DNA of 15,209 nt from Candidatus Iainarchaeum sp. (GCA_903916665.1 CAIWXP010000183.1:1-15209), one strand, 5' to 3'. Positions 1 to 15,209 are shown, counted from the stretch's first letter. Notes: generated by a model from the letters alone, not told the origin. Numbers and translations: made by a program.

Positions 1-1281
1 CGATCCATTTAATTTGGCAAATGCATCCAGGAAAATATAATTATTAATATCTAAATCTAATAAATTAATTGTTAATTTATTTGGAAAATTAAAAGGATAA
101 TTGTATATTGGAGCATAGGCATAAGAACACTCATTCAAAGGAATTATATTTAAATAATAACTTCCTGTATTCAAATCGCCTATTTTTGCTTCTAGGTTTG
201 AACTTACATCATTTAATTCGGACATTAAATTTGAATCTTTATAAACAGAAACATAAAAATTACAACCATCGTTAGCATCCAATGTTAAAGATAAATAATT
301 TCCATCAAAAAAACCAAATTCGAAAACTTTTGATGCTGCCAATGTATTTACATTAACTACAACATTAGAATCCATCAAAGAATATAAATTTTCATTATAA
401 TTCACATCTGCCCTTACTGTATAAGTACCTGCATTTAAATCTAAAAATTGAGTACTTCCTTGACTATCTGTAGTTTGTGATAGAGAATTATTTAATAAAG
501 TTATCTTTACTCCAGAAACAGGATTATTTGTATTTGCATCTATTGCTTTTACAACTAAATTATTTGTTTGTATAACAGGTTTTGGTTGTTCCGCATTCAA
601 TATAATAGAACAATTATTTTCAACACACGGTTTATCATAGGGTAAGAATCCAGGAACTGTTCCACTTATTTGCAAAGAACCACAATCAGAATCTTTTGAA
701 TAATCTTTAGTACCACTAATTGATATTAAATCTGTTTTACCAGAATTTATACATTTAACAGTTAATGTAATTTGAGAATTATACAGCAAAGTTACATCAG
801 GTGATTTATACACTGATAATTTAACAATTGTTAATTTAGGAGCTGGAATATCTGGTACAGATACTGGTTTAGTAATATCAACTCTATAACTTGAGTCTGC
901 TATGGTGTATTTTTTTGTTAACTCATAACCTTCTGTTTTTACTTCTAAATTAATATCTTTACCTTCGGGCAAATTAACGAGCAAAAGGTTTTGCTGTGTT
1001 GTTAAATCTTTAACAACGTCATCATAGGATATTGTTAAATCTAAATTGTCTGTAACTGGTTGTTTATTTAAATAAAAAGAAAAGGTAACATCCATAGTCT
1101 TAGGAATCAAAAAATAAATCAGAATACTTACTAATAATACAGCTACTACCACAACACCAATATAAATATACTTTTTAGGTATTGCCTTAAATTGTTCTGA
1201 AAAACTTTTGGTTTTTGCTTGACTAATTTCTCCTCTTAGTTCTGCTTCAATATTCTGGTCATAATCATTATTTTGTTCCAT
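1..1281 (-). CDS. N-terminal 427 codons of a third large membrane-anchored surface-protein paralog (gene C). It is 3'-partial and continues past the left window edge.
   Basis: ATG at 1281..1279 on the minus strand, with an in-frame stop 5 codons upstream (TAG, plus 1297-1299) and no other start candidate between them. I checked the first ~360 nt triplet by triplet and found no minus-strand stops; the full hand translation is open to position 1 (1281 nt = 427 codons exactly). It translates as MEQNNDYDQNIEAELRGEISQAKTKSFSEQFKAIPKK-YIYIGVVVVAVLLVSILIYFL-IPKTMDVTFSFYLNKQPVTDNLDLTIS... It has the same tail / TM / beta-sandwich / 4-Cys / prealbumin-like order as genes A and B. Confidence 0.8.
   Translation of the reverse strand, partial: MEQNNDYDQNIEAELRGEISQAKTKSFSEQFKAIPKKYIYIGVVVVAVLLVSILIYFLIPKTMDVTFSFYLNKQPVTDNLDLTISYDDVVKDLTTQQNLLLVNLPEGKDINLEVKTEGYELTKKYTIADSSYRVDITKPVSVPDIPAPKLTIVKLSVYKSPDVTLLYNSQITLTVKCINSGKTDLISISGTKDYSKDSDCGSLQISGTVPGFLPYDKPCVENNCSIILNAEQPKPVIQTNNLVVKAIDANTNNPVSGVKITLLNNSLSQTTDSQGSTQFLDLNAGTYTVRADVNYNENLYSLMDSNVVVNVNTLAASKVFEFGFFDGNYLSLTLDANDGCNFYVSVYKDSNLMSELNDVSSNLEAKIGDLNTGSYYLNIIPLNECSYAYAPIYNYPFNFPNKLTINLLDLDINNYIFLDAFAKLNGS
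403..561 (-). other. Carboxypeptidase-regulatory-like (prealbumin-fold) beta-sandwich domain, protein C
   Basis: LVVKAIDANTNNPVSGVKITLLNNSLSQTTDSQGSTQFLDLNAGTYTVRADVNYNE fits the family pattern h-x-h-x-h-x-D-x3-4-P-h-x-G-h-x-h-x-h ... TD-x2-G-x-h ... L-x2-G-x-Y-x-h. Assigned by eye; no HMM was run. Confidence 0.6.
610..753 (-). other. Four-cysteine module (C-x22-C-x18-C-x4-C) of protein C
   Basis: VKCINSGKTDLISISGTKDYSKDSDCGSLQISGTVPGFLPYDKPCVENNCSII. The Cys codons were checked at 751-753 and 610-612. The spacing is the same as in A and B. Confidence 0.6.
1108..1170 (-). other. Predicted transmembrane / signal-anchor helix of protein C (aa 38-58)
   Basis: YIYIGVVVVAVLLVSILIYFL is a 21-residue uncharged hydrophobic stretch. 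It is preceded by the basic AIPKK (positive-inside rule) and is the only such stretch in the visible protein. Confidence 0.75.
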
Positions 1282-1313: not shown

Positions 1314-4300
1314 TTACTGTTGTTCACCTAATAATTTGAATATATTCCAATAGTATAAATATTTTCCTTCTTTATTTAAATAACACATATTGCTTTTTCC
1401 AATCTCATCAACTATATTTGATATGCTTTCAACACCATCTACTATATTTTGAGAATCTAATCCTTTTTGCAAAACATAGACCAAATATTCTGATATGTCA
1501 GAATAATCTAATCCTTCCTTCTTTTGTGATTTAACGGTTATAGATCCATCATTGGAGCTTTCAATAACATCATAGTATAAACTTGCAGGATAAAATAAAT
1601 TGTTTTTCTTAACAAATAATTTTGCATAGGTTGCACCATTTATAGTATTGGTATAATCTAAATTCTCATTTACCTGTTTAATATGTAAATCATTTGGTGC
1701 AAAATATAGTTCTCCATTTCCACCAATATTTGAAGATAAACTTACTTCCCCTTTTAATGCAATTGGTAAATTATCTAAAGTATATACTGTTTTATTTAAA
1801 GTATAATCAAATAATGCAGATTTACTTTTATCTGTTGAATAAGTTTTACTTGAATCATATTTTAATAGAGTATCTATTGTTGTGCCAATCCCATAATCAG
1901 GCGTAGGAGTGTAGGGCATATAATAAAATAAATGATCTGGCATTAAATAGGTATTAAAAGATAAATATACTCTAAAATTATTATCTGAATCTACAATTAA
2001 TCTTGCATCATAGATTCCGGATTGTAATACTCCAATTGGTTCTTGTTTATAGGATAAAAATGAAATATTTAATCCCGAATTTTGTAAAAATCCTTTTTGT
2101 TGATAAATATCCAATGCTTCTTTTGTATAATTATCATATAATAATTGTACCTTAAAACTAGATTCTGCATTTAATTTTGCTTTGGCCTGTAAATAATTTA
2201 CAAACTGTTTTAAATTACAACCATATTGTGATCCAAAGTCACAATTAACATCATCAGTAAAACTTATTTTAGGCATAGCATCTTGACCAGTTAAACCGCC
2301 ACCAAAACAATTTGATATTTGTGCAGCCATAAATCCTGGCTTTGGTTTTTCTTTATATACTCTAATATTTGAACTATTGGCTTTTATAATAGCAATAAAT
2401 TCCAGTGTAAAAGTAGTTAATTGACCAATATTATAGCCACATTCCGAACTATTAACTGTACAAACTATATCAACATTATAATTTAATTTAACAAAGGATT
2501 TAAAATCTAAAATTGAACTATAATCAATGTCCGCGCCATTATATGCAGTACCAACTGCTTGACCAAAATTAATTACAGATTGCGAATTTCTCATTAAATT
2601 AATCCATTTAGATTTAACATAACCCACATAAGCATCATAGTAATTTGTAGTTGCAGTAACATATTTTTTAGCCTCGGCATCAGAATAATATTTTTTCTGT
2701 AAATTATTTGACTGTATGTTTGATGAAATATAATCTTTTAAACTATTTTCTCCATTCTTTCCATAGACAGTATCTAAACCATTACAACTATAATTAACTA
2801 CAGAATCTGAATTTGGACCCGCATCGGTCGAATCTTTTAAAATAAACGATTTAGTTATGTAACTGTTATTATAATTATCAAAAAATAATTTTGAATAGGC
2901 TAAATATATAGGATCTGTTTCTGCTAAATTTATATCATTACCTGAACTATCTTTAGTTGACATAACTAATTTATCTAAACAAATCTTTGTTGTTTTATCT
3001 GTTCCGCTATACTCTAAAGGATAGTAAATAGTATAGTCTTTAAAATTAGAATTCAAAACAGAATTTATTGATTTATAGGCATCATCAGAAGTAAAATTAA
3101 TTATATTTCCAAAACTAATTCCTGTATTTGTTAAAAGATAATTATTAATAGTTTTATCTACTTCTACAGCATCATTAAAAATAACATTATTTGTACTATC
3201 AATGGTTGCATCACTAAATTTTTCTCTTTTTACATCATCAGTAATATTTGTTAATTTACAAATTGTTAAAATAGAATAGGTTCCTTCCCCCCAATCACAA
3301 CCACCCCAATAATCATCATCTAAAGAAACATAGCCCCCAAAAAGATATTCTTTCACACCAGGAGATAAACTATCATTAGTCCAAAAGGATTTCTCAAAGC
3401 CCCATAAATCACCTTGTTGTTTATTGGCCATATATATTTTAACTGGTTCAAAACCATTTGGACAAAAAGTTGCTGCACTATTATGTATTCCATAACACCA
3501 GCCCTTAACACTAGCCGTACCTAAGTTAATAAAGTATGGAAAATCTTGATTGTTTTTTATTTCTGTACCTATTTGTTCAACATATTTACTAAGGTATTCT
3601 TTATATTGTATAGGATCTTTATAATTATCTTTCCCAAAAAATTTACTTGTATCTTCACCCGCAAAACTATTCATAAAATCAAAAGAATAATCTTTTTTTG
3701 ACGGTATACTTTTTGAATAAATAAAATATCTAAAATTTGGAGCTTCCCATAACCAACCACCAAATTCATCAGTAGCAAATAATTTAAAACTATATTTTGA
3801 AAAATCCCCATTTACTTTATCTTTTAATACTTCATTATAATTATCATATTTATAGGTATTTTGATCTTGACCGTTCTTAATACCTGTTAAAAAATAAAAT
3901 AAATTATCACGAAAAGGGTGCCATATGCTAAATTCGGGTATTATTATATCATTATAAATACTACTTACAACTGATTCTAATCCATGTGGATAATATTCGT
4001 TTTTATAAACAGTAACTGGCAAATTATTATTCAAATCAGTAATGAATGGATTTTTTAAAAAATATTTGTTTTGTGTAGAACTTTCAACATTTATCTTTAA
4101 ATCTTTAACATAATCGATGGTAGTAGAATTATCTAATTTGTATAAACTTAATAATACGGCTCCAGAAAAATTATCTGGTCTATCTAAACTAAAATTAATA
4201 TTTTGATCAGGATCTAAAGTTATTTTGTTACCAAAAGATACTGGATAATTCACAGATGAAATCGATAAATAATCATCATTAACTTTACAATATTCATCAT

Positions 4301-7300
4301 CGGATTTACACAATTGAATAGTTACTGGCTTATTACAGCCGTTGCTAATTTGTAATGGTAAAGAGTCAAATTCAAAATAATCAGTAACCTGATCTCCTGG
4401 AAATGTTGCTGGTAAATCTGCGTTATCTGCCATTTTTGCTTCTCCGGGTTTCTCTATAATATTTCCTTGAGCTTTTGATCTTTCACCATCCAAATAATAT
4501 GGAAATTGATAACCGTCTGTGCCCTCTAATGAAAACAAATCTTTATTTTGATTAGTTGTATCAACACCAAAGTATAAACAATTTTCATAGGCTCTGAAAG
4601 ATACATCCAATTTTAAATTTTTAGGAATTGAATTAGTAGAATTATAATTTGATTGATCTGTTGAATAGCCCCCTAAAACATTAAATGTTAAATGTGCATC
4701 AACATTAGACATTGCTAAATCATTCAAATCATCAACAGATAATTTAATTCCGTAGGTATAATCTTGACCAGCTAAAACAACTTCTGGCAAAGGAATAATT
4801 AGGTTTTTACTAATTATACTAGAATATTTATCTTTACCATCTTTTGAAATTTTTATTGCAATAGGAATATCTGAATTAACACTTAAATTAACATCTTTAA
4901 ATTTATAATTAGAAAGACCATTAAGTTCACAATTATTAATAATATGTAAATCAAAACTTTCTTCACTAGCTTCTAAAAAAGTTACATTTGATATTTCTTT
5001 ATCATCTTTTCTTAAATCAACCTGCAAACAATCATCACTATTACTCGGCTCTCCATTAAATATAAACTTAATATCCAAAGGTATATTCTTTGTAAATACT
5101 GTATCCAACAATGATTCTATTGTTGTTAAAAAAGAATTATCAACATTTACTGGAATATATTTAAAATTTAAAAATGAGCTAAACAAAGATATATCTGGTG
5201 CCATCATTAAAGCATCAGGATTAAAAGAAATTGGTAAACTTAACTTATCGTTTGAATGCAATAAAGACCCATCTTTAAATTTGCCTTCCATAACATCTTT
5301 TTTAAATAATAAATTTACAAAATCTATGAAAACAGAAGAATCCCAATAATATTTTAAATCATAAATATTCAAATCATAGTTTGAGGTATTATTTATATCA
5401 ACAAAAACATTTGGCTTTGTACCATCTGTAGGATAATTTATTGTTGCAGATAATTTATCTTTAACAGTAAAAAAATTAAAATCAGAAACAATTTCTTTTG
5501 CAAATGGTTGATAGCTTTGCTTAAAAACAACTATTTTAATTTTATCGCCTATACCTAAAGGATTTGTAGTTACATCAATTGAACCATCATTACCCGTATA
5601 ACTAGTATTAACATATTTCCATATTCCATTAAATGAATCATAGTATTTAACTTCTGCACCTACAACAGGGCCAACATCATTTGTTACTCTAATTAAAATA
5701 TCATTTTTAATATAGGGCACTATTATATCATTTGGTTTTACTTCAACATTTAATTTTGCTTTATCACTAGAAGTTAAATTTATTTTATATTCTCCGTAAG
5801 TATTATTCCAATCATCTTTATATAATTTAAACACCATTGAACTACTATCTGGTGTTAATAATTGATAATCAAAATTAAAATCAATATAATTTCTATAGTC
5901 TATTATTTGATCATTTAAATATATTGGACCGCTTGATAAGCCAGATTCTGTTTTATTTCCAAAAATATCTGTGATTGATAATTTTCCTTGAAGAATATTT
6001 AAAAATAATTCACCAACATCCTGTTTAATACTTGAACTCCCTGATTCTTTTAAATTATAAATTGCCATTTTTTTAATATCTGAATTGTTATCAAATAATA
6101 TTTTACCAAAAACATTTCCTTTAGATGCAATTTCATGACTATTACTTAATGCATCATTCCCTGAATAGGCATTAACACATATAGGATCAGAACAAATTTG
6201 AGTACCTAATTTTCTAGAAATATTATTTAAACTTAAATCTTTTTTATCAGTACCAAACCAATACCAGAAAGAAATACTATCTCCGCCGGGTGTTGATAAA
6301 ATAACATTATTTGTTATTAAAACTCTAATTGAATACATTATTTCAGTTTCATTATCAAAAGTACTTTCAAAATCTGCTTCAGATGTAAAACTTTTTGATT
6401 TAAATAAGAAATTATCATCTGTATTTGCACCAATTAATTTTGTATCATCAAAAGAACTATTATAATTTGAATAAAAAATAGTATTTCCTAAACTATCCAT
6501 TGATATTACTTGTAGTTTTGATAACTCTATATTTTCATCTGTTTTATTTCCCGCAATTCCATAAAAAAATAATTTATTTGGTTTGTTTTTTGGCACTTTA
6601 ACTTTAAATGCATAGTAATATTCATTCATAGGTAAAAGTTCATTTGCGGGTTTTGACAATTGACTATCAGAATAAATTCCTTGAAATTCTATTGTTAATT
6701 TTTCCAAAGGGTTGTTTGGAATTATTGGAGTTAATTCTAAATTAAAACTATAGCTACCATTATTTTCCATAAAAAATGTTTGAGAATATAAATCAAGATA
6801 ATCCTGCTTTGTCACTTTAAAATAAACACTTTCTAAACTTTTAATTTGTGTTGATGCACAATTTTGATTTTTATCGACAAAAAATGTTGATTCCAATCCT
6901 CTCTCACTAGAATAAACTTCAATTATTGCATCCCCAATTGGTTTTTTATTATCAGTTAAACAAACATTTACTGTAGAATTGCCCCAGGCAACAGGTAAAA
7001 CAACAGAAACTGATGTTAATGATAATGATTTTGATTCCTGAACATTAAACGTTGCAATTCCAGATAAATAATTATGTTTTAATTTTACATCATATTGTCC
7101 TTTAGGCAATATTAAATAGTATATTCCATTATAATCTGTTGTTATTATGCCTATGTTTGTTAGGTATTCTTTATTTTCATTTTCAAACCAAATTCTTGCG
7201 AAAGGAATTGGATTTTGCGTAGTTGAATCAATTACTTGAACAACCACATTCTGATCAGTAAAAGAATTATATTTTCTAATTGTTTTTTCTATTGTTTTGT

Positions 7301-8606
7301 CCCCTGAATTTTGATCATAATTTACAGTTATATCTTCAGAAAGATATTTATCATTATAGGGTACATCTAAAGATGATGATATAATATAATTGCCTTGGTT
7401 TACCAATGGAAATACAGTTTGAGTATTAGAATCATATTTTTTAGTTTCTAAAATATTTTGATTTTCATCCTTTAAAAAAATAGTACCACTAACAAAATTA
7501 TCATCTTCTACTTTAAAATTAATATTTAAATTTCCCATGGGCAAAACATCTAAAACAAATGATACAGTTACTGCATTTCCTGCGGTTATTATTGCTTGTT
7601 TAGTTTGTGCAGCATACTTTCCACTAGGATCTGATAAAATAATATTATAGGTTCCTGATAATAATTCTGAGCTATAGGATCCAAAATCTCCAGTTATACC
7701 AGAATCAATTAATTCTTTAGTTTCAGAATTATCTCTTATTTCTAAGGTCATATTACTTGCTGGTTTTCCATCTTTACCATTAACATATACAATTAATTTA
7801 TTTTTGGGAACATTTTGCATAACTTTTACATCTGAACTTAAATTATCTTGAACTAATATTTTACACATTCCAAAATTACAATTTTGCTTTACTCCTGGAT
7901 AATTATCAATATTAGCGATGATTGAAACAGTATTACAAGGAATCTTTTGATCATTTAAAACTCCTTTAATTAAATTATATTGCATATTAAAATCTTGACA
8001 TGATACACTAATTACAGCATCTTTTTGTAATGTTCCATTTTGAGTAACCAATATAAATGAAAATAAATTCTCCTTTTGATCTGTTTTAGTTGTTGTAATT
8101 GTTGAATTTGAAACAATATTTAAAATAATTTCTGATTTATTTGTTATAAATTGTTTTGTTGTTTGAGTCATATCTTTTAATGTTATCTTAGCATTAATTG
8201 TTGAATCGCTTAAAGCATTAAATGTAACCGGGCCTTTAACATTTCTTCCTGTGCCAACTAATTCAACTGGATCTTTTGATGTTAATGTGATTGTATAGGA
8301 ATCAGTTAACAATTTTCCATCTAGATTTATTTTCAAAGTATAACTATTCATAGCAGATGAAAATACAGTAAAATAAACTATTACTGCAATAATAATTAAA
8401 AATAATACTAAAAAGAAAATCATTGAAGGCATTACTTTATCAATTACATTTGTTACACTTCGTAAATGTAATTTATCAATAAGAGAGTAATATTTATTTG
8501 ATAATTTTTTATACCAACTTTCATTCAAAGTTAATTCTTTGTTTTTAGGAGGTTCTTGAATATCTATATTTCTATCAAGGCTTGTTTCGTTTAAATTATC
8601 AGCCAT
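1314..8606 (-). CDS. Giant (2430 aa) single-pass anchored, Cys-paired, beta-sandwich-rich surface protein (gene B). No family name can be assigned.
   Basis: Uninterrupted 7.3 kb ORF in about 27% GC DNA, where stops should be frequent. The ATG at 8606 is immediately preceded by an in-frame TAA, so the start is unambiguous. Stop is TAA at 1314-1316. N-terminus: a 61-aa charged tail, then the hydrophobic helix MIFFLVLFLIIIAVIVYFTVF. It is colinear with its paralog, gene A. Confidence 0.92.
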   Translation of the reverse strand: MADNLNETSLDRNIDIQEPPKNKELTLNESWYKKLSNKYYSLIDKLHLRSVTNVIDKVMPSMIFFLVLFLIIIAVIVYFTVFSSAMNSYTLKINLDGKLLTDSYTITLTSKDPVELVGTGRNVKGPVTFNALSDSTINAKITLKDMTQTTKQFITNKSEIILNIVSNSTITTTKTDQKENLFSFILVTQNGTLQKDAVISVSCQDFNMQYNLIKGVLNDQKIPCNTVSIIANIDNYPGVKQNCNFGMCKILVQDNLSSDVKVMQNVPKNKLIVYVNGKDGKPASNMTLEIRDNSETKELIDSGITGDFGSYSSELLSGTYNIILSDPSGKYAAQTKQAIITAGNAVTVSFVLDVLPMGNLNINFKVEDDNFVSGTIFLKDENQNILETKKYDSNTQTVFPLVNQGNYIISSSLDVPYNDKYLSEDITVNYDQNSGDKTIEKTIRKYNSFTDQNVVVQVIDSTTQNPIPFARIWFENENKEYLTNIGIITTDYNGIYYLILPKGQYDVKLKHNYLSGIATFNVQESKSLSLTSVSVVLPVAWGNSTVNVCLTDNKKPIGDAIIEVYSSERGLESTFFVDKNQNCASTQIKSLESVYFKVTKQDYLDLYSQTFFMENNGSYSFNLELTPIIPNNPLEKLTIEFQGIYSDSQLSKPANELLPMNEYYYAFKVKVPKNKPNKLFFYGIAGNKTDENIELSKLQVISMDSLGNTIFYSNYNSSFDDTKLIGANTDDNFLFKSKSFTSEADFESTFDNETEIMYSIRVLITNNVILSTPGGDSISFWYWFGTDKKDLSLNNISRKLGTQICSDPICVNAYSGNDALSNSHEIASKGNVFGKILFDNNSDIKKMAIYNLKESGSSSIKQDVGELFLNILQGKLSITDIFGNKTESGLSSGPIYLNDQIIDYRNYIDFNFDYQLLTPDSSSMVFKLYKDDWNNTYGEYKINLTSSDKAKLNVEVKPNDIIVPYIKNDILIRVTNDVGPVVGAEVKYYDSFNGIWKYVNTSYTGNDGSIDVTTNPLGIGDKIKIVVFKQSYQPFAKEIVSDFNFFTVKDKLSATINYPTDGTKPNVFVDINNTSNYDLNIYDLKYYWDSSVFIDFVNLLFKKDVMEGKFKDGSLLHSNDKLSLPISFNPDALMMAPDISLFSSFLNFKYIPVNVDNSFLTTIESLLDTVFTKNIPLDIKFIFNGEPSNSDDCLQVDLRKDDKEISNVTFLEASEESFDLHIINNCELNGLSNYKFKDVNLSVNSDIPIAIKISKDGKDKYSSIISKNLIIPLPEVVLAGQDYTYGIKLSVDDLNDLAMSNVDAHLTFNVLGGYSTDQSNYNSTNSIPKNLKLDVSFRAYENCLYFGVDTTNQNKDLFSLEGTDGYQFPYYLDGERSKAQGNIIEKPGEAKMADNADLPATFPGDQVTDYFEFDSLPLQISNGCNKPVTIQLCKSDDEYCKVNDDYLSISSVNYPVSFGNKITLDPDQNINFSLDRPDNFSGAVLLSLYKLDNSTTIDYVKDLKINVESSTQNKYFLKNPFITDLNNNLPVTVYKNEYYPHGLESVVSSIYNDIIIPEFSIWHPFRDNLFYFLTGIKNGQDQNTYKYDNYNEVLKDKVNGDFSKYSFKLFATDEFGGWLWEAPNFRYFIYSKSIPSKKDYSFDFMNSFAGEDTSKFFGKDNYKDPIQYKEYLSKYVEQIGTEIKNNQDFPYFINLGTASVKGWCYGIHNSAATFCPNGFEPVKIYMANKQQGDLWGFEKSFWTNDSLSPGVKEYLFGGYVSLDDDYWGGCDWGEGTYSILTICKLTNITDDVKREKFSDATIDSTNNVIFNDAVEVDKTINNYLLTNTGISFGNIINFTSDDAYKSINSVLNSNFKDYTIYYPLEYSGTDKTTKICLDKLVMSTKDSSGNDINLAETDPIYLAYSKLFFDNYNNSYITKSFILKDSTDAGPNSDSVVNYSCNGLDTVYGKNGENSLKDYISSNIQSNNLQKKYYSDAEAKKYVTATTNYYDAYVGYVKSKWINLMRNSQSVINFGQAVGTAYNGADIDYSSILDFKSFVKLNYNVDIVCTVNSSECGYNIGQLTTFTLEFIAIIKANSSNIRVYKEKPKPGFMAAQISNCFGGGLTGQDAMPKISFTDDVNCDFGSQYGCNLKQFVNYLQAKAKLNAESSFKVQLLYDNYTKEALDIYQQKGFLQNSGLNISFLSYKQEPIGVLQSGIYDARLIVDSDNNFRVYLSFNTYLMPDHLFYYMPYTPTPDYGIGTTIDTLLKYDSSKTYSTDKSKSALFDYTLNKTVYTLDNLPIALKGEVSLSSNIGGNGELYFAPNDLHIKQVNENLDYTNTINGATYAKLFVKKNNLFYPASLYYDVIESSNDGSITVKSQKKEGLDYSDISEYLVYVLQKGLDSQNIVDGVESISNIVDEIGKSNMCYLNKEGKYLYYWNIFKLLGEQQ
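1317..2327 (-). other. Conserved C-terminal (membrane-distal) module of protein B (aa ~2094-2430), family unknown
   Basis: It aligns without large gaps to A aa ~1838-2178. Shared motifs are NCFGGG[LM]TG, QLLYDNYT[KR]EALDIY, YLMPDHLFYYMPYTPxPDYGIGTTI, IGGNGE and Y[IL]YYWNI. Confidence 0.6.
5493..5708 (-). other. Prealbumin-like domain 4, protein B (aa 967-1038)
   Basis: KNDILIRVTNDVGPVVGAEVKYYDSFNGIWKYVNTSYTGNDGSIDVTTNPLGIGDKIKIVVFKQSYQPFAKEI. Confidence 0.5.
6729..6977 (-). other. Prealbumin-like domain 3, protein B (aa 544-626)
   Basis: STVNVCLTDNKKPIGDAIIEVYSSERGLESTFFVDKNQNCASTQIKSLESVYFKVTKQDYLDLYSQTF. Confidence 0.5.
7032..7253 (-). other. Prealbumin-like (CarboxypepD_reg-like) domain 2, protein B (aa 452-525)
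   Basis: NVVVQVIDSTTQNPIPFARIWFENENKEYLTNIGIITTDYNGIYYLILPKGQYDVKLKHNYLSG. Confidence 0.6.
7185..7262. repeat. Second high-identity island, copy in gene B (encodes FTDQNVVVQVIDSTTQNPIPFARIWF)
   Basis: 7 mismatches in 78 nt (hand count, about 91%) against 13988..14065 at offset 6803. The peptides are 25/26 identical. Confidence 0.85.
7551..7802 (-). other. Prealbumin-like beta-sandwich domain 1, protein B (aa 269-352)
   Basis: KLIVYVNGKDGKPASNMTLEIRDNSETKELIDSGITGDFGSYSSELLSGTYNIILSDPSGKYA. This is a looser match to the same pattern. Confidence 0.45.
7863..8000 (-). other. Four-cysteine module (C-x20-C-x18-C-x4-C) of protein B (aa 203-248)
   Basis: VSCQDFNMQYNLIKGVLNDQKIPCNTVSIIANIDNYPGVKQNCNFGMCKIL. 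The Cys codons were verified at 7998-8000 and 7863-7865. Confidence 0.6.
8127..8412. repeat. Dispersed direct repeat, copy 1. It covers the 5' coding region of gene B (TM helix plus first beta-sandwich) and is near-identical to 14924..15209.
   Basis: Ungapped alignment at a constant offset of 6797 nt. Hand count: 13 mismatches in the 241-nt core (8172-8412 vs 14969-15209, about 95%). There is a divergent 14-nt patch at 8158-8171, then identity resumes back to 8127. Confidence 0.9.
8361..8423 (-). other. Predicted transmembrane / signal-anchor helix of protein B (aa 62-82)
   Basis: MIFFLVLFLIIIAVIVYFTVF is preceded by a Lys/Arg-containing 61-aa tail and followed by SSA|MNS. It is the only long hydrophobic stretch in 2430 aa. 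Confidence 0.8.
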
Positions 8607-8610
8607 TTAA

Positions 8611-8615
8611 ATCAC
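8611..8615 (-). promoter_or_regulatory. Candidate Shine-Dalgarno-like element GTGAT, 4 nt upstream of the gene B ATG and overlapping the gene A TGA stop
   Basis: The minus strand reads GAG-TGA-TTTAA-ATG. GTGAT is complementary to the AUCAC part of the conserved 16S rRNA 3' end (..GAUCACCUCCU). The same pentamer lies 3 nt upstream of the gene C ATG. Confidence 0.4.
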
Positions 8616-11600
8616 TCTTGACCTAATAATATATTTGTAATGTTCCAATAGTAAATATACTCGTTATCTTTCATTGTATAACAAATATCGCTAGTAGCTA
8701 TTTTATCATTTATTTCAGACATATTACTAACTTGATAAACTTGTGCATCGGTATCTACAGAAGTATTTGATTTAACAACATAGGCCAAATATAATTGATC
8801 ATCACTATAATCAACGTTGGGTCTTTTCTTTATTGTTACTGTTGAATTATCTTCTGATTTTATTACATCGTAGGTTATACCTGCAGAATAAATCTTATCA
8901 TTCTTTTTAACAAATATACCTTCGTAGGATACTTCACCTTTCATATCCACAGATAAATCATCGGCAATTAAAGTTATTGGTTTTATTCTTAATTCATTTG
9001 GATAAAATGTAATTTCACCATTTCCTCCAATATCAGTTAAGGCAACTCTTCCAACCATGGTAATAGGTAAATTATCTTTAGAATATAAACTTTCAATTAA
9101 ATTATAGGTAAACAAAGGAGAGATGTTTGTGTTTGTAGAATTAGGATAGGAGATTCCAGATTTATAAAAAAGTGTTCCACCAATTGTTGTACCAATACCA
9201 TAGTCCGGATTTGGTGTATAAGGCATATAATAAAATAAATGATCGGGCATCAAATAAGTTTCATAGGTCAAATAAACTTTGAAATTAGTATCTGATTCTT
9301 TATATAAAGTTCCACTATATATTCCTGTTGGCAATATACCCAATGATTCTCCACTAGAAGATAGGAAAGATACAGTTACATTTTTGTTACTTAAAAATGA
9401 TTTATTATAAATATCCAATGCTTCTCTTGTATAATTATCATATAATAATTGTGCAACAAAATCAACTTTAGTTCCATTATTACTATTTGATAAAACTTTT
9501 AAATAATCTACAAAATCAGACATATTACAAATATATTTTGATCCTACACTACAATCATTAACTTTTTCATTAAAACTAATTTTAGGAATTACATCAGATC
9601 CAGTCATACCCCCACCAAAACAATTTGAGTTTTCATTAACAACATATTTCGGTTTTGGTAATTCTTTATATAATCTTACTCCTGATGCTTCACCAGTAAT
9701 ATCCAACTTATCATAGGACACTTCATTAAAATCTCTATCAATAGCATAAAAATTTGGTCTAAATTTATCTTTATTTAATCTACAAACTGTTAATATTTTA
9801 TAGTCTCCCATGCCTGTATTTCTATATCCTTTCCCGCCCATGGTATCCAATCCAATATCTCCACCAAAGATATAGGCTTTATAACCATTTTCAATATAAG
9901 GATCTTTTACCATAAACTTTTTAGTTATTGAATCTTCTCCGCCATGAACTAATTCTAAAGTAATATTAACAGGATCATAATTCTCAGGACAGAAAGTTAC
10001 TGCCGAAACATTTGTTCCACCACCACTATTTCCTCTAAAAAAACCAAATGCCGCATTAATAAAATATGGATATTTCTCTTCATTTAATTTTGTACCTATT
10101 TCTTTAACATAATCATATATTTGATGGTAGGGTATTGGGTCTAAATAATGTCCAGTAAAATATACTTCGTGTATTTTACACTGATCAAAATAATCTGAAT
10201 TTTCATTAATTGAACTAAAATCATAATTTAATTTTGGAAATAAACTATAATTTTCATCTCCAACATATACCATATAGGCATAACCTGCTCCTTCATGTTC
10301 CTGTGTTCCACAAGTAGAAGAACAGTGTGATTGATAAGCACCACAAAAATCATCATAACTTCTTCCAGCAATAGTATCCAATCCTGCATCTCTATAAATA
10401 TCATCCCAATATTGATAACCATCAAATACTAGACTTAAAAATCCTTTTTTAATAATATTTGAGTATTCCATACTTCCTACACTAAATCCACAACCTCCAC
10501 CACCTACAGATTTAGGAGATCCTGCACCAGAAGTATCTTCCCAATCACCATGGGTTTTAAAAAAATAATTACTATCTGATAATTTTCCTCCAAATAAAAT
10601 AGCATTTACATCAAATTTACCCTTTATTACTGATCCAACTCTACAATTTCTACCATCATTGTCCCAAAATGGAGAATCTGGAACATTATTACTCAAAAGA
10701 GTATAATAATCCATATTAGGATAATATTCATTTTTGAAATAATAAAAAGGCATTTTTGTATTCATATCTAAAATAAATGGATTAACAACAAAATTATTTG
10801 CACCTACAGATCCTTCTATATTTATTTTTACATCTTTAACAATTTGATTAATTTCTCTTGTTTCAGTTGAATTATCTTCAATACTTAATAATGTTAATGG
10901 AATTATTGCTGCTCCAGAAAAACTATCTGGTCTCATTAATGAAAATTTATAATTTTGGTCAGCAGCTAAATTTATTTCTGTATTGGGTTGCCCCAAGAAA
11001 GAACTTGATACTAAATCCAATGGTTCAGTACCAGATATGTTACAATATTTGTCCAAATCAGGATTATTAGTATTACAAAGTTTAAAATTAATTGTCTTAC
11101 CACAACCATTACTTACTACTAATGGTAATTCGGTAATTTCATATCTATCATTATAAACATTTTTAGCATTTACTGAATCCTGTGAATCTAAACTATCTCT
11201 TGAATAAAGTATAGTTTCATTATTATCTACTGCTCTTTCACCCACTAAATAATAAGGTAATTTTAAAATATCTGTATTTTCTAAAATATAATCATTTTCA
11301 CTTGCACCAATTGTTTTTGCAGTATCGCTATCTAAACCAAATTTCAAACAATCTTCTGCAGTTTTAAATTGCAACGATAATGTTTCGTTGGTTGATTTAG
11401 AATCTAATAAATCAGCTGATGCAGTAGATTTATATTTTCCAACAACATCTGCAGTTAAATCAAAGGCTGCACTAGACATTGCTAATTCATTAAAATCACC
11501 CACAACATCTAATTTCAAAATATATACTGCTGGTTCAACATCTGAACCCCCATCTAAAGAATATTTTAAAGGGATTTGTTTATCTTTATTAGTATTTCCA

Positions 11601-14600
11601 GAAAATAATACTTCTCCAGTTTTATCAGAAACTTCAACACTAATATCTAAACCAGTATTTAATTCTAAAAACACATCCTTAAATTTATATTTAAATCCAT
11701 TGGCTAAAGTACAATCATTAAAAACTCTTAAATATACTTTATCTTCTTTTGAATCTAAAAATACAATATCTTTTAATGGTGCAGTTTCTGCAGATTCAAA
11801 TTGTAATCTTAAACAAGGTTCATTTCCTGGTTTACCTTCAAAACCAAAATTAAAAGTAATGGGTATATTTTTATACATTCTTATATCGTTTGATTTTGCA
11901 ATTAATTCAGATACCCCATCTTTTGGTGTAAAATTAAAATACAAAGATCCAGAAATTGTTTTGGTTCCATCTAAAGTTTGTAATAATTGTGGATCATAAA
12001 CAACTGGTAAACTTAATTTCTTTTCAGTATCTGTTGAATGCAATATAAATCCATTGGCAAATTTATTTGTCATGTTTTCAATTGTTAAAAATCTATTAAT
12101 AAATTCTTCATCTGTTTTTGTATAATCCCAATAATAATTCAAATCATAAATATTTAAATCATAGCCCAAATCATTTTGAACTTCTACTTCTTTTTGTGGA
12201 TTTGCAGGATCAGTAGGATAAATAACATTAATAGTTAGTGGTCCCTTTGGATCAAAGCCATTAAAATCAGAATTTATTTCTTTAACATTAGCTTTATAAT
12301 TATCTGCCGATACAACTAATTTAATTTTGTCATTTCTTGCAACAGGATTTGTATTTAATTCAACATAGCCTGTTTTATCAGTATAGGCTGTTTTATCATT
12401 TAATAAATGCCAATTACTATTTGAATATTCATAATATTTAATTTCTGCACCATGCACTGGATAATTATCTTGACCCAAAACAACTAATTTAATATCATTA
12501 GAAATATAGGGTACAATATAATCAGGATAATTTACTGTTAATTCACCATTGGCACTATTCATAAATTGTAAAGAATAAACTGTATTATTTATATCCCAAA
12601 AATCTTTATATGCATTAAAATTCAAACTAGCTGAATTGTTAGTAACTAAACTATAATTAAAATCAAAATCTAAATATTGACCTTGATTAACTGGTTGATT
12701 ATCAACATATATTGGTCCAGAACTCATTGCTTTCGAATCTTTAGAGCCATCAACATTATTTATACCATATTCTGCACCATTTAATGCAACACTTAAATCC
12801 AATAATTCTGCTTTTGATTTAATTGCTTTTTCGTCAGAATTATACAATGCAAAATTATAATCTTTATTACTAAATCTTACCTTACCATATATTCTACCAA
12901 CAGCAGATGCATTATAGGGACTAGTTATTGAATTGTTTGCAGAATCATAGGCATCAACACAAATTTCTGTTTCACAAATATTTGTACCTATTTTCTTAAC
13001 TATTTTTGTTAAATTTATTTTATCATTGTCTAAACCAAAACCATAATTAAAAACAATTGAATCACCATTTACTGCACTAGGATTAACATTTGTTGTTATA
13101 CTTGTTTTAACAACATATTGCAATTCAACATCATTTTCTGCAGGTGCATCAAATCTATGAATATTTGCAAAACTCTTTGCTTTATATGCGAAATCATCTT
13201 CCACATCTAAAATAGTTCCACTCATCAAATCCAAATTATTTTGTTTATAATCTGGATAATAATTTATAATTCCTGAATCATTTACTAATCTTGTTTGCAT
13301 TTTTGAATTAGTTGCATTTTCATCTTTTAAATCACCGGTTACACCAACAAATTTTATTGTTCTATTATTATTAACATAGGCTTTAGGCACTTTAACTTTA
13401 AAAGAATAATAGTAATCCTTTGAAGTATCTAATTTTGTTGCAGGTTCTTTTAAATATGAATCATTATAAATACCATCAAATTGATAATCTAAATTTTGAA
13501 CAGGCTCAACAGGTCTTGTTTTTTCTAATACTATATCAATGTTATAAGTTTCATTATTTAAAACAAAATATGTTTGAGTATATTTTTCATAATAATCTGT
13601 TTTTTTAACATGGAAATAAATATTTTCTAAACTTTTTACTTGTTTTGTTGCACAATTATTTTGAGCATCCAAATAAAAACTAGATTCTAAACCATCTGTA
13701 CTATACACATCAACATAGGCATCATTTAAATCGCCGTTAGAAATATCTTTTAAACAAACATTAATTGTTGCATTACCCCATGCTACTGCTAAAGAAACAT
13801 TTTTTGTTGTCATTGTTAATGATTTTGTTTGGTCAACAGAAAATCCTTGTATTCCAGATAAATAATAATGTTTCAAATTAACATTATAACTACCAACGGG
13901 CATAACTTTATAAAAAATACCATTTGCATCTGTTAAAACAAATGCGCCATCAACACCATAGTCTAATAAACTACCATCAACAGAAGTAAACCAAATTTTT
14001 GCAAAGGGAATTGGATTTTGTGTAGTTGAGTCAATTACTTGAACAACCACATTCTGATCTGTGAAAGGATTTGTTTTTCTTATACTGTATTTTACATCCA
14101 TATCTCCAGAATCTTTATCATAGGTAATTGGTAAAACATCTGCAATATAATCATTTGTTTTATCTGCACTTAATGATAATGATAAATTATAACTTCCTTT
14201 TTTAGTTATTGGCATTACCAAAGAATTATTAGAATCAAAAGGTTTTGATTGCAAAATTAATTGATTTGCATCTTTAAAAAATAATGTGCCATTAACATAA
14301 TTTTTATCTTCAACATCAAAACTAATATTTAAATTTCCAATTGCTTTTTCTTGCATAGTAAAATAAATTGGATTTTGGTTTCCTGCATGTACTTCTACAT
14401 TTTGTGTTTGTGATGCATACACATTATTTGGATCTGAAACTAAAATAACATATTTTCCTTCTGCTAAATCAATATTATATGCACCAAAATCTTTTGTTTT
14501 TCCAGAATCAATTAATTCTTGACCTGTAGAATCTTCTCTTACTTCAACAGTAAAATCTTTTATTGGATCATTATTTGCATATCTTACATAAACAACTAAT

Positions 14601-15209
14601 CTATTTTTTGTTAAATTAACTGGCGCTTTACTTAAATTATCAACAAACATTAATCTACAAAGACCAGGATTACAACTTTGTTTTACACTAGGATAGTTTT
14701 CAACATTTGCAGTTATACTAACATTATCACAACTAATTTTAATATCACTCAAATTTCCTTTTACAACTGGCAATTCATTATTATAATCTTGACATTCTAT
14801 TTTAACTTTTCCATCTTTTTCTAAAAAACCATTTTGAGTATTAAAAATAAATGAAAATATATTCTCTTTTTGTTTTGTTACTGCTTTTGAATCAGATTTT
14901 GTTGGAGAAGTTAAACTTAATACAATTTCTGATTTATTTGTTGTAAATTGTTTTATTATGGGCGTTAAATCTTTTAATGTTACTTTAGCATTAATTGTTG
15001 AATCGCTTAAAGCATTAAATATAACCGGGCCTTTAATATTTTTTCCTGTACCAACTAATTCAACTGGATCTTTTGATGTTAATGTAATTGTATAGGAATC
15101 AGTTAATAATTTTCCATCTAGATTTATTTTCAAAGTATAGCTATTCATACCCGATGAAAATGCAGTAAAATAAACTATTATTGCAATAATAATTAAAAAT
15201 AATACTAAA
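8612..15209 (-). CDS. Giant (at least 2198 aa visible) paralog of gene B (gene A). It is 5'-partial; the true start lies beyond the right window edge.
   Basis: The ORF track starts it at Met 15148, but the frame stays open to 15209. The 20 extra codons read LVLFLIIIAIIVYFTAFSSG before MNSY, matching aa 66-85 of protein B (LVLFLIIIAVIVYFTVFSSA before M86 NSY). So Met 15148 is internal and the TM helix and tail lie upstream. Stop is TGA at 8612-8614. Confidence 0.92.
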   Translation of the reverse strand, partial: LVLFLIIIAIIVYFTAFSSGMNSYTLKINLDGKLLTDSYTITLTSKDPVELVGTGKNIKGPVIFNALSDSTINAKVTLKDLTPIIKQFTTNKSEIVLSLTSPTKSDSKAVTKQKENIFSFIFNTQNGFLEKDGKVKIECQDYNNELPVVKGNLSDIKISCDNVSITANVENYPSVKQSCNPGLCRLMFVDNLSKAPVNLTKNRLVVYVRYANNDPIKDFTVEVREDSTGQELIDSGKTKDFGAYNIDLAEGKYVILVSDPNNVYASQTQNVEVHAGNQNPIYFTMQEKAIGNLNISFDVEDKNYVNGTLFFKDANQLILQSKPFDSNNSLVMPITKKGSYNLSLSLSADKTNDYIADVLPITYDKDSGDMDVKYSIRKTNPFTDQNVVVQVIDSTTQNPIPFAKIWFTSVDGSLLDYGVDGAFVLTDANGIFYKVMPVGSYNVNLKHYYLSGIQGFSVDQTKSLTMTTKNVSLAVAWGNATINVCLKDISNGDLNDAYVDVYSTDGLESSFYLDAQNNCATKQVKSLENIYFHVKKTDYYEKYTQTYFVLNNETYNIDIVLEKTRPVEPVQNLDYQFDGIYNDSYLKEPATKLDTSKDYYYSFKVKVPKAYVNNNRTIKFVGVTGDLKDENATNSKMQTRLVNDSGIINYYPDYKQNNLDLMSGTILDVEDDFAYKAKSFANIHRFDAPAENDVELQYVVKTSITTNVNPSAVNGDSIVFNYGFGLDNDKINLTKIVKKIGTNICETEICVDAYDSANNSITSPYNASAVGRIYGKVRFSNKDYNFALYNSDEKAIKSKAELLDLSVALNGAEYGINNVDGSKDSKAMSSGPIYVDNQPVNQGQYLDFDFNYSLVTNNSASLNFNAYKDFWDINNTVYSLQFMNSANGELTVNYPDYIVPYISNDIKLVVLGQDNYPVHGAEIKYYEYSNSNWHLLNDKTAYTDKTGYVELNTNPVARNDKIKLVVSADNYKANVKEINSDFNGFDPKGPLTINVIYPTDPANPQKEVEVQNDLGYDLNIYDLNYYWDYTKTDEEFINRFLTIENMTNKFANGFILHSTDTEKKLSLPVVYDPQLLQTLDGTKTISGSLYFNFTPKDGVSELIAKSNDIRMYKNIPITFNFGFEGKPGNEPCLRLQFESAETAPLKDIVFLDSKEDKVYLRVFNDCTLANGFKYKFKDVFLELNTGLDISVEVSDKTGEVLFSGNTNKDKQIPLKYSLDGGSDVEPAVYILKLDVVGDFNELAMSSAAFDLTADVVGKYKSTASADLLDSKSTNETLSLQFKTAEDCLKFGLDSDTAKTIGASENDYILENTDILKLPYYLVGERAVDNNETILYSRDSLDSQDSVNAKNVYNDRYEITELPLVVSNGCGKTINFKLCNTNNPDLDKYCNISGTEPLDLVSSSFLGQPNTEINLAADQNYKFSLMRPDSFSGAAIIPLTLLSIEDNSTETREINQIVKDVKINIEGSVGANNFVVNPFILDMNTKMPFYYFKNEYYPNMDYYTLLSNNVPDSPFWDNDGRNCRVGSVIKGKFDVNAILFGGKLSDSNYFFKTHGDWEDTSGAGSPKSVGGGGCGFSVGSMEYSNIIKKGFLSLVFDGYQYWDDIYRDAGLDTIAGRSYDDFCGAYQSHCSSTCGTQEHEGAGYAYMVYVGDENYSLFPKLNYDFSSINENSDYFDQCKIHEVYFTGHYLDPIPYHQIYDYVKEIGTKLNEEKYPYFINAAFGFFRGNSGGGTNVSAVTFCPENYDPVNITLELVHGGEDSITKKFMVKDPYIENGYKAYIFGGDIGLDTMGGKGYRNTGMGDYKILTVCRLNKDKFRPNFYAIDRDFNEVSYDKLDITGEASGVRLYKELPKPKYVVNENSNCFGGGMTGSDVIPKISFNEKVNDCSVGSKYICNMSDFVDYLKVLSNSNNGTKVDFVAQLLYDNYTREALDIYNKSFLSNKNVTVSFLSSSGESLGILPTGIYSGTLYKESDTNFKVYLTYETYLMPDHLFYYMPYTPNPDYGIGTTIGGTLFYKSGISYPNSTNTNISPLFTYNLIESLYSKDNLPITMVGRVALTDIGGNGEITFYPNELRIKPITLIADDLSVDMKGEVSYEGIFVKKNDKIYSAGITYDVIKSEDNSTVTIKKRPNVDYSDDQLYLAYVVKSNTSVDTDAQVYQVSNMSEINDKIATSDICYTMKDNEYIYYWNITNILLGQE
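8615..9637 (-). other. Conserved C-terminal (membrane-distal) module of protein A (aa ~1838-2178), family unknown
   Basis: Same motifs as the B module. YLMPDHLFYYMPYTPNPDYGIGTTI is encoded at 9182..9256, against 1875..1949 in B. Confidence 0.6.
8629..8636 (-). promoter_or_regulatory. A/T-only octamer AAATATAT at -30..-23 from the gene B ATG, inside the 3' end of gene A (very weak candidate promoter)
   Basis: Same distance from the ATG as the element upstream of gene C. It cannot be distinguished from background composition. Confidence 0.12.
12278..12499 (-). other. Prealbumin-like domain 4, protein A (aa 884-957)
   Basis: NDIKLVVLGQDNYPVHGAEIKYYEYSNSNWHLLNDKTAYTDKTGYVELNTNPVARNDKIKLVVSADNYKANVKEI. 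Confidence 0.5.
13526..13774 (-). other. Prealbumin-like domain 3, protein A (aa 459-541)
   Basis: NATINVCLKDISNGDLNDAYVDVYSTDGLESSFYLDAQNNCATKQVKSLENIYFHVKKTDYYEKYTQTY. Confidence 0.5.
13829..14059 (-). other. Prealbumin-like (CarboxypepD_reg-like) domain 2, protein A (aa 364-440)
   Basis: QNVVVQVIDSTTQNPIPFAKIWFTSVDGSLLDYGVDGAFVLTDANGIFYKVMPVGSYNVNLKHYYLSG. Confidence 0.6.
13988..14065. repeat. Second high-identity island, copy in gene A (encodes FTDQNVVVQVIDSTTQNPIPFAKIWF)
   Basis: See the copy in gene B. Confidence 0.85.
14351..14602 (-). other. Prealbumin-like beta-sandwich domain 1, protein A (aa 183-266)
   Basis: RLVVYVRYANNDPIKDFTVEVREDSTGQELIDSGKTKDFGAYNIDLAEGKYVILVSDPNNVYA. It is colinear with B domain 1. 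Confidence 0.45.
14657..14794 (-). other. Four-cysteine module (C-x20-C-x18-C-x4-C) of protein A (aa 119-164)
   Basis: IECQDYNNELPVVKGNLSDIKISCDNVSITANVENYPSVKQSCNPGLCRLM. The Cys codons were verified at 14792-14794 and 14657-14659. Confidence 0.6.
14924..15209. repeat. Dispersed direct repeat, copy 2 (5' coding region of gene A). It probably continues beyond the window edge.
   Basis: See copy 1. Similarity is still high at the last base of the window. Confidence 0.9.
15158..15209 (-). other. Predicted transmembrane / signal-anchor helix of protein A (truncated by the window edge)
   Basis: Codons upstream of the ORF-track Met read LVLFLIIIAIIVYFTAF, nearly identical to the TM helix of protein B. 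Confidence 0.75.

Follow-up and report, generated by a model that had tools for sequence, protein, structure and literature searches.

The stretch of DNA analysed here, referred to as the window, is an entire contig of 15,209 bp with a G+C content of 26.5%, and its host, judging from relatives of the encoded proteins, is probably an uncultured archaeon of the DPANN type (Iainarchaeota-like). The contig is filled by three co-oriented giant genes, all of which reside on the minus strand (Table 1). The stop codon of gene A is followed by gene B after 5 nt, and that of gene B by the third gene after 32 nt. Genes A and B are apparently co-transcribed. Gene B is complete, whereas gene A has a frame that is uninterrupted from the contig end to its stop codon; the ATG at position 15148, returned as the start of A by an ORF lister, is an internal methionine that is equivalent to residue 86 of B. 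With regard to the third gene, a likeness of its N-terminus to a 1539-aa gene of locus L002 and a 698-aa gene of locus L004 was noticed by eye only.

Table 1. Genes and sequence features within the 15,209-bp window.
Feature	Position	Strand	Remarks
Gene A (5'-truncated by the contig end)	8612..15209	-	Type-2 giant membrane-anchored protein, at least 2198 aa
Gene B (complete)	1314..8606	-	Type-2 giant membrane-anchored protein, 2430 aa; identical to P0001
Third giant gene, type 3 (5' part, first 427 codons)	1..1281	-	Runs off the contig; outside the island
Cytoplasmic N-terminal tail of B (residues 1-65)	8413..8606	-	Motif KYYSLIDKLHLRSVTNVIDKVMPSMIFF; the counterpart in A lies beyond the contig end
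Island core, gene A	14969..15209	-	228/241 nt identical to 8172-8412; reaches the contig end
Island core, gene B (B residues 66-145)	8172..8412	-	Ungapped alignment to A
3' transition zone of the tract, gene A	14924..14968	-	Base-by-base alignment; change point
3' transition zone of the tract, gene B	8127..8171	-	Base-by-base alignment; change point
Possible second micro-tract	A 9407..9451 vs. B 2103-2147	- (A)	44/45 nt identical

Both A and B are predicted to be giant, N-terminally membrane-anchored surface proteins with beta-sandwich domains arranged like beads on a string. An AlphaFold2 model of residues 66-367 of B, which was derived from a shallow alignment of six sequences and has a mean pLDDT of 77, has a membrane helix at model residues 2-19, after which come three beta-sandwich domains (model residues 22-99, 115-186, and 204-287) connected by disordered linkers. 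Pfam matches in A and B are few, and each of them is to a beta-sandwich-type domain. Residues 206-286 of A match PF13620 with 51.1 bits (gathering cut-off 32.3; E = 1.8e-13); in B, there is no match to PF13620 and the related PF13715 is found only below its cut-off, while the model of B contains a beta-sandwich homologous to the PF13620 domain of A. The best Foldseek matches (E-values from 1e-10 to 5e-6) were the TIE protein, pilins, SdrD, UafA, and SlaB, that is, CnaB-type and Ig-like domains of pilins, adhesins, and S-layer proteins, and no solved structure with a sequence match to the proteins studied here was found. The resemblance to Gram-positive pilins and adhesins and to archaeal S-layer stalk proteins (BcpA, SdrD, SpaC, SlaB) appears to be one of the beta-sandwich fold only: sequence identity amounts to 7-15% and, unlike in the Gram-positive pilins and adhesins, there is no sortase/LPXTG signal, the anchor being an N-terminal membrane helix.

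Giant proteins of this family are rare. A set of 5.8 billion proteins contained four homologues of B, and a full HMMER scan across 1.84 billion representatives yielded 40 clusters at E <= 1e-3, none of them with more than 50% identity. Neither the missing 5' end of gene A nor any close relative was found in genome or metagenome contig collections; the scan of genome contigs returned distant archaeal relatives only, and that of metagenome contigs two distant fragments. Nothing relevant was found in the literature on giant proteins of Iainarchaeota. Nine related loci (L001-L009) feature a conserved tandem cluster of genes for giant proteins with an N-terminal anchor. Up to three types are present in the cluster, with sizes of ~2470 aa (type 1), 2100-2470 aa (type 2), and ~1540 aa (type 3). 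Tandem pairs in these nine loci consist of a type-1 and a type-2 gene, never of two type-2 genes, and self-comparison by BLASTN revealed no similarity at the nucleotide level between the tandem giants of any of them. A and B, on the other hand, both belong to type 2, of which every other genome found has a single gene. The body of A falls with the subfamily P0002-P0004, while B shares 56-66% identity in its cytoplasmic tail with P0005, P0006, and P0008 from the other type-2 subfamily. Since two old subfamilies are thus represented on the contig by one gene each, a near-identical segment at the 5' ends of both genes must be secondary.

Such a segment, termed the island in the following, is indeed present. 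Its two cores align without gaps and differ at 13 of 241 nt (94.6% identity), which agrees exactly with the count given in a first-pass annotation of the window, and the 57 identities among the first 62 ectodomain residues that had been listed there were likewise reproduced. Its figure of 10 transitions among the 13 mismatches has to be corrected to 11. Several mismatches had been described as synonymous, and Nei-Gojobori counting assigned 6.0 of them to synonymous and 7.0 to non-synonymous change. In A, the core codes for the last part of the membrane helix together with ~60 residues from the first ectodomain. Protein identity between A and B is 85-93% in the island segment and 43% outside of it. 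Over the 2070 codons aligned between the two genes (with the island making up the first 80), nucleotide identity is 0.946 in the island vs. 0.594 elsewhere, such that the sharp contrast with the flanks noted at first pass is real. Third codon positions are identical in 74 of the 80 island codons compared to a fraction of 0.548 elsewhere (binomial P = 1.3e-13).

The 3' boundary of this tract is the only one visible, as the contig stops short of the 5' one; the island was correctly annotated as unbroken at the window edge, the window being the whole contig. A two-segment likelihood model placed the change point at nucleotides 240-285 of A, equivalent to positions 14969-14923 of the window, and the start at 14924 proposed earlier fits this range. 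Past the end of the core at 14969, a divergent patch of 15 nt is followed by a run with 28 of 29 nt identical that extends to ~14924, and beyond this point identity between A and B is ~70% and drops further. According to the structural model, the tract would span the helix and ~75-95% of domain 1 and end inside the last two strands of that domain. The tract end (residues 80-95) lies near but within the end of domain 1, and the domain boundary discriminates no explanation.

Divergence at synonymous sites sets the island apart even more clearly. By the Nei-Gojobori method, dS and dN are 0.118 and 0.039 in the island as opposed to 0.776 and 0.54 elsewhere. The uncorrected proportions in the island are 0.109 (pS) and 0.038 (pN), giving a pN/pS of ~0.35, and the lowest pS among 48 flanking windows of 80 codons is 0.30; synonymous divergence in the island, for which the first-pass annotation had suggested a comparison with the flanking segments, is therefore clearly below that of the flanks. 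Where A and B have the same amino acid, they also use the same codon in 66 of 72 cases in the island vs. a fraction of 0.62-0.72 elsewhere (Fisher p = 3e-5). Codon usage alone predicts a value of 0.654 at full saturation, which is near the value observed elsewhere: outside the island, synonymous sites of A and B are saturated. Transitions and transversions occur at a ratio of 11:2 in the island and of 808:1609 elsewhere, a contrast expected for a young vs. a saturated divergence. The conserved block TDQNVVVQVIDSTTQNPIPFA served as an internal control. Here, dN is 0.06 and dS is 0.54, which means that constraint at the protein level does not preserve synonymous sites in A and B. For L003 and L004, the closest orthologue pair available, dS is 0.60 and thus five times that of the island, indicating that the event is young when measured against the divergence of species in this group.

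Comparison with the type-2 proteins of related loci pointed in the same direction. Identity of the island segment to six orthologues is 25-42%, while it is 41-54% for the following 225 residues, which makes the island segment the least conserved stretch within the N-terminal 400 residues when orthologues are compared. Neighbor-joining trees, which were calculated from simple distances and contain long branches, differed along the gene. In the island tree, A is sister to B in 100 of 100 bootstraps; for residues 80-800 of A, the protein groups with those of L001, L003, and L004 to the exclusion of B (100/100); residues 800-1500 gave no resolution; and for residues 1500-2198, A and B are again sisters (99/100). 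We furthermore performed a maximal-fragment permutation test on six type-2 genes, for which our own GENECONV-style implementation was used and not the GENECONV program itself. It identified an A-B fragment at alignment sites 0-263 in which 171 of 187 polymorphic sites are identical, and the score of this fragment was reached in none of 2000 permutations (p < 0.0005).

We consider the island to be the result of a recent ectopic gene conversion, or of an equivalent non-reciprocal homologous recombination, between tandem paralogs, and put the probability of this reading at roughly 80%. Recent conversion or recombination was one of two readings put forward at first pass, and the low dS of the island lends it support. 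A discrete tract, low dS, tree incongruence, and non-conservation in orthologues are all observed at this locus, and from them we infer homologous recombination as the process. A and B belong to two old subfamilies of one protein type, with saturated synonymous sites outside the island; one copy would have acted as template and overwritten at least 240-285 nt of the other, across the membrane helix and into the first ectodomain by roughly 60-75 residues. After copying, the 13 substitutions would have gathered, mostly as transitions and with a pN/pS of ~0.35. Homogenisation of the anchor-proximal part may have been tolerated or even favoured because both proteins would reside in the same envelope.

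As for the direction of transfer, the identity of the island to the A subfamily (34-42%) and to the B subfamily (25-38%) differs too weakly for a call. The island is marginally nearer to the A subfamily and B keeps the tail of its own subfamily, which gives a weak hint, drawn from two tract sequences only, at a transfer from A to B. If this were the case, one might speculate that the 5' boundary of the tract is located near the junction of tail and helix.

Gene conversion is a textbook mechanism, while the setting described here, a rare family of giant proteins in DPANN-type archaea, is new; the finding therefore adds an example and not a principle. Archaeal chaperonin paralogs are reportedly an example of ectopic gene conversion, as put forward by Archibald and Roger in 2002. 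Ectopic gene conversion or concerted evolution has also been reported for paralogous surface antigens of Plasmodium falciparum (PMC10919680) and for the Gal/GalNAc lectin genes of Entamoeba (PMC3125142), and a transfer of the GAF-A domain is reported between the tandem genes TbrPDEB1 and TbrPDEB2 of Trypanosoma brucei (PMC2689650). The locus studied here shares with cases of ectopic conversion the discrete near-identical tract in old paralogs, the low dS, the incongruence between trees for tract and flanks, and the presence of adjacent co-oriented genes. It resembles TbrPDEB1/B2 in that an N-terminal module has moved and the remainder of the gene is still diverged. Unlike in the known cases, however, the host is an uncultured organism of the DPANN type, the genes encode giant (2200-2400 aa) membrane-anchored beta-sandwich proteins, and a single event with one boundary is visible and is read from sequence alone.

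Should the gene conversion reading be correct, homologous recombination between paralogs would act on giant envelope-protein genes of an uncultured archaeal lineage with small genomes, and conversion would be capable of shifting a membrane anchor together with a first domain between proteins whose identity is otherwise 43%. In practice, tracts of this kind mislead assignments of orthology and phylogenies of giant envelope-protein genes, and they also break or confuse assemblies of metagenomes, for which the contig end inside the tract may be an illustration.

The tract is known from one assembly and is situated at the very end of a contig. An artefact of assembly accordingly has to be weighed, in which the final 240-285 nt would represent the 5' end of gene B from a co-occurring strain with ~5% divergence that was misjoined to A. 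The position of the island exactly at the end of a contig that makes up the whole window is in line with such a misjoin, and the divergence of 5%, the high transition bias, and the pN/pS of 0.35 would likewise be compatible with allelic differences among strains. However, a de Bruijn join requires an exact k-mer common to the true A and the foreign allele, and runs common to A and B at the boundary do not exceed 19 nt; any longer common k-mer would itself constitute a real, albeit shorter, island. In addition, the boundary is patchy, with the divergent patch and the nearly identical run described above in place of a clean switch, and the reading frame is unbroken across the junction. We therefore consider a misjoin unlikely.

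Beyond the island, further signals suggest older or smaller exchanges and give the locus a mosaic-looking character. The C-terminal regions of A and B are identical to a degree of 0.48-0.57, compared to ~0.42 with orthologues, and the possible micro-tract listed in Table 1 is of borderline significance after multiple testing. Both the C-terminal grouping and this patch of 44/45 nt are weaker signals than the main island. Synonymous sites in the C-terminal region are saturated, implying that exchange there is old and not ongoing. The view taken at first pass, that the locus generates mosaics, thus stands in part, namely insofar as tree topology shifts along the gene. That island, C-terminal grouping, and micro-tract together reflect a recurrent and selected homogenisation or exchange of terminal modules between the subfamilies appears improbable to us. 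If true, standing recombination would keep the anchor-proximal and distal modules matched or reshuffled while the middle parts of the proteins diverge.

The same mosaic signals, i.e., the pairing of A with B over the C-terminal 700 residues and the second patch, could be taken as traces of programmed variation, in which a dedicated system for cassette exchange, phase variation, or diversity generation would use the 5' module as its homology arm; giant surface proteins are plausible targets for a system of this kind. Known antigenic-variation cassette systems are pilE/pilS in Neisseria, vlsE in Borrelia, and vlp/vsa in Mycoplasma. Common to these and the locus under study are surface paralogs in which a shared 5' anchor or signal segment is located beside a variable ectodomain, as well as recombination between copies. 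Unlike in the cassette systems, there are neither silent promoterless cassettes nor a multi-copy archive, a site-specific recombinase, or an invertible element at this locus, both genes are full length, and their divergence outside the island is ancient and does not originate from shuffling. With just three giant genes, two of them full-length copies of the type concerned, with Pfam hits in A and B that are few and solely of the beta-sandwich type, and with self-comparison devoid of inverted repeats, the window speaks against a programmed system, as does the age of the C-terminal exchange. Cassette antigenic variation was rejected on the basis of the presence of two copies only and no further copies at the nucleotide level in the contig. 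A DGR with a TR/VR pair was rejected as well, given that the 11 transitions and 2 transversions run in both directions and are not adenine-specific as in DGRs. In summary of these points, programmed variation is highly improbable, and gene conversion between the two type-2 genes remains our preferred explanation.

Selective constraint, the other reading proposed at first pass, would have purifying selection act on the protein or on the nucleotides themselves (RNA structure, a regulatory site, or a targeting signal) and could draw on a pN below pS and on a conceivable common partner of the membrane anchor and membrane-proximal domain, but it has found no support, is largely refuted, and strikes us as scarcely credible: synonymous sites are kept in the island as well (dS of 0.12 vs. 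0.78), the protein-constrained block of the same genes still diverges at dS 0.54, orthologues are least conserved exactly here, no Rfam family was detected in the island sequence, and RNA folding is on par with shuffled sequences (z of -0.31 and -0.36), with the two copies predicted to fold differently.

Tandem arrays of two or three giant, N-terminally anchored beta-sandwich proteins of 1500-2500 aa form a conserved cluster in uncultured archaea, as seen in the window and in nine related loci (L001-L009). The protein family itself is very rare: a search of 1.84 billion representatives retrieved 40 clusters at E <= 1e-3. Among the loci compared, only the contig studied here carries a pair of type-2 genes, and each of the two subfamilies contributes one of them. 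The ATG at 15148-15150, listed mechanically as the start of an open reading frame, was rejected as the start of gene A as it is an internal Met codon that corresponds to Met86 in gene B; gene A truly begins past the contig end.

Most type-2 giants share a cytoplasmic motif, KYYxLxDK...T..IDKVMPSMIFF, that immediately precedes the membrane helix and is also discernible in type-1 giants. It is deleted in the subfamily comprising P0002-P0004, with which the body of gene A groups. The motif may serve as a targeting or docking signal.

Features of the giant genes and their coordinates
Feature	Gene A	Gene B	Related loci	Strand	Identity (nt)
Cytoplasmic motif		8413-8606 (residues 1-65)	L002 10001-10300; L005 10049-; L006 9947-
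Second short A/B patch	9407-9451	2103-2147		minus	44/45
41-nt A/B patch	12124-12164	5339-5379		minus	38/41
C-terminal region	8612-10700 (residues about 1500-2198)	matching part

With regard to similarity between genes A and B, the C-terminal regions cluster as one group in 99 of 100 bootstraps, sharing 0.48-0.57 identity with each other vs. about 0.42 with orthologues. Despite this grouping, synonymous sites are saturated in these regions, and the grouping could reflect older homogenisation or lineage-specific co-evolution. The 45-nt patch encodes QLLYDNYT(R/K)EALDIY, and third positions are identical in 23 of the 25 codons of a window around it; it may represent a micro-conversion tract or a chance outcome of AT-rich codon bias. 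The 41-nt patch, specifying YDLNIYDL(N/K)YYWD, probably stems from conservation of a motif at the protein level together with codon bias.

In one relative, L001 (8542-9939 and 16348-17722), the type-1 giant is separated from the type-2 giant by an inserted gene for a 465-aa protein, and the giant cluster is followed by an AbiEii-family gene and a partner, which suggests that the giant-gene locus receives mobile or defence genes.
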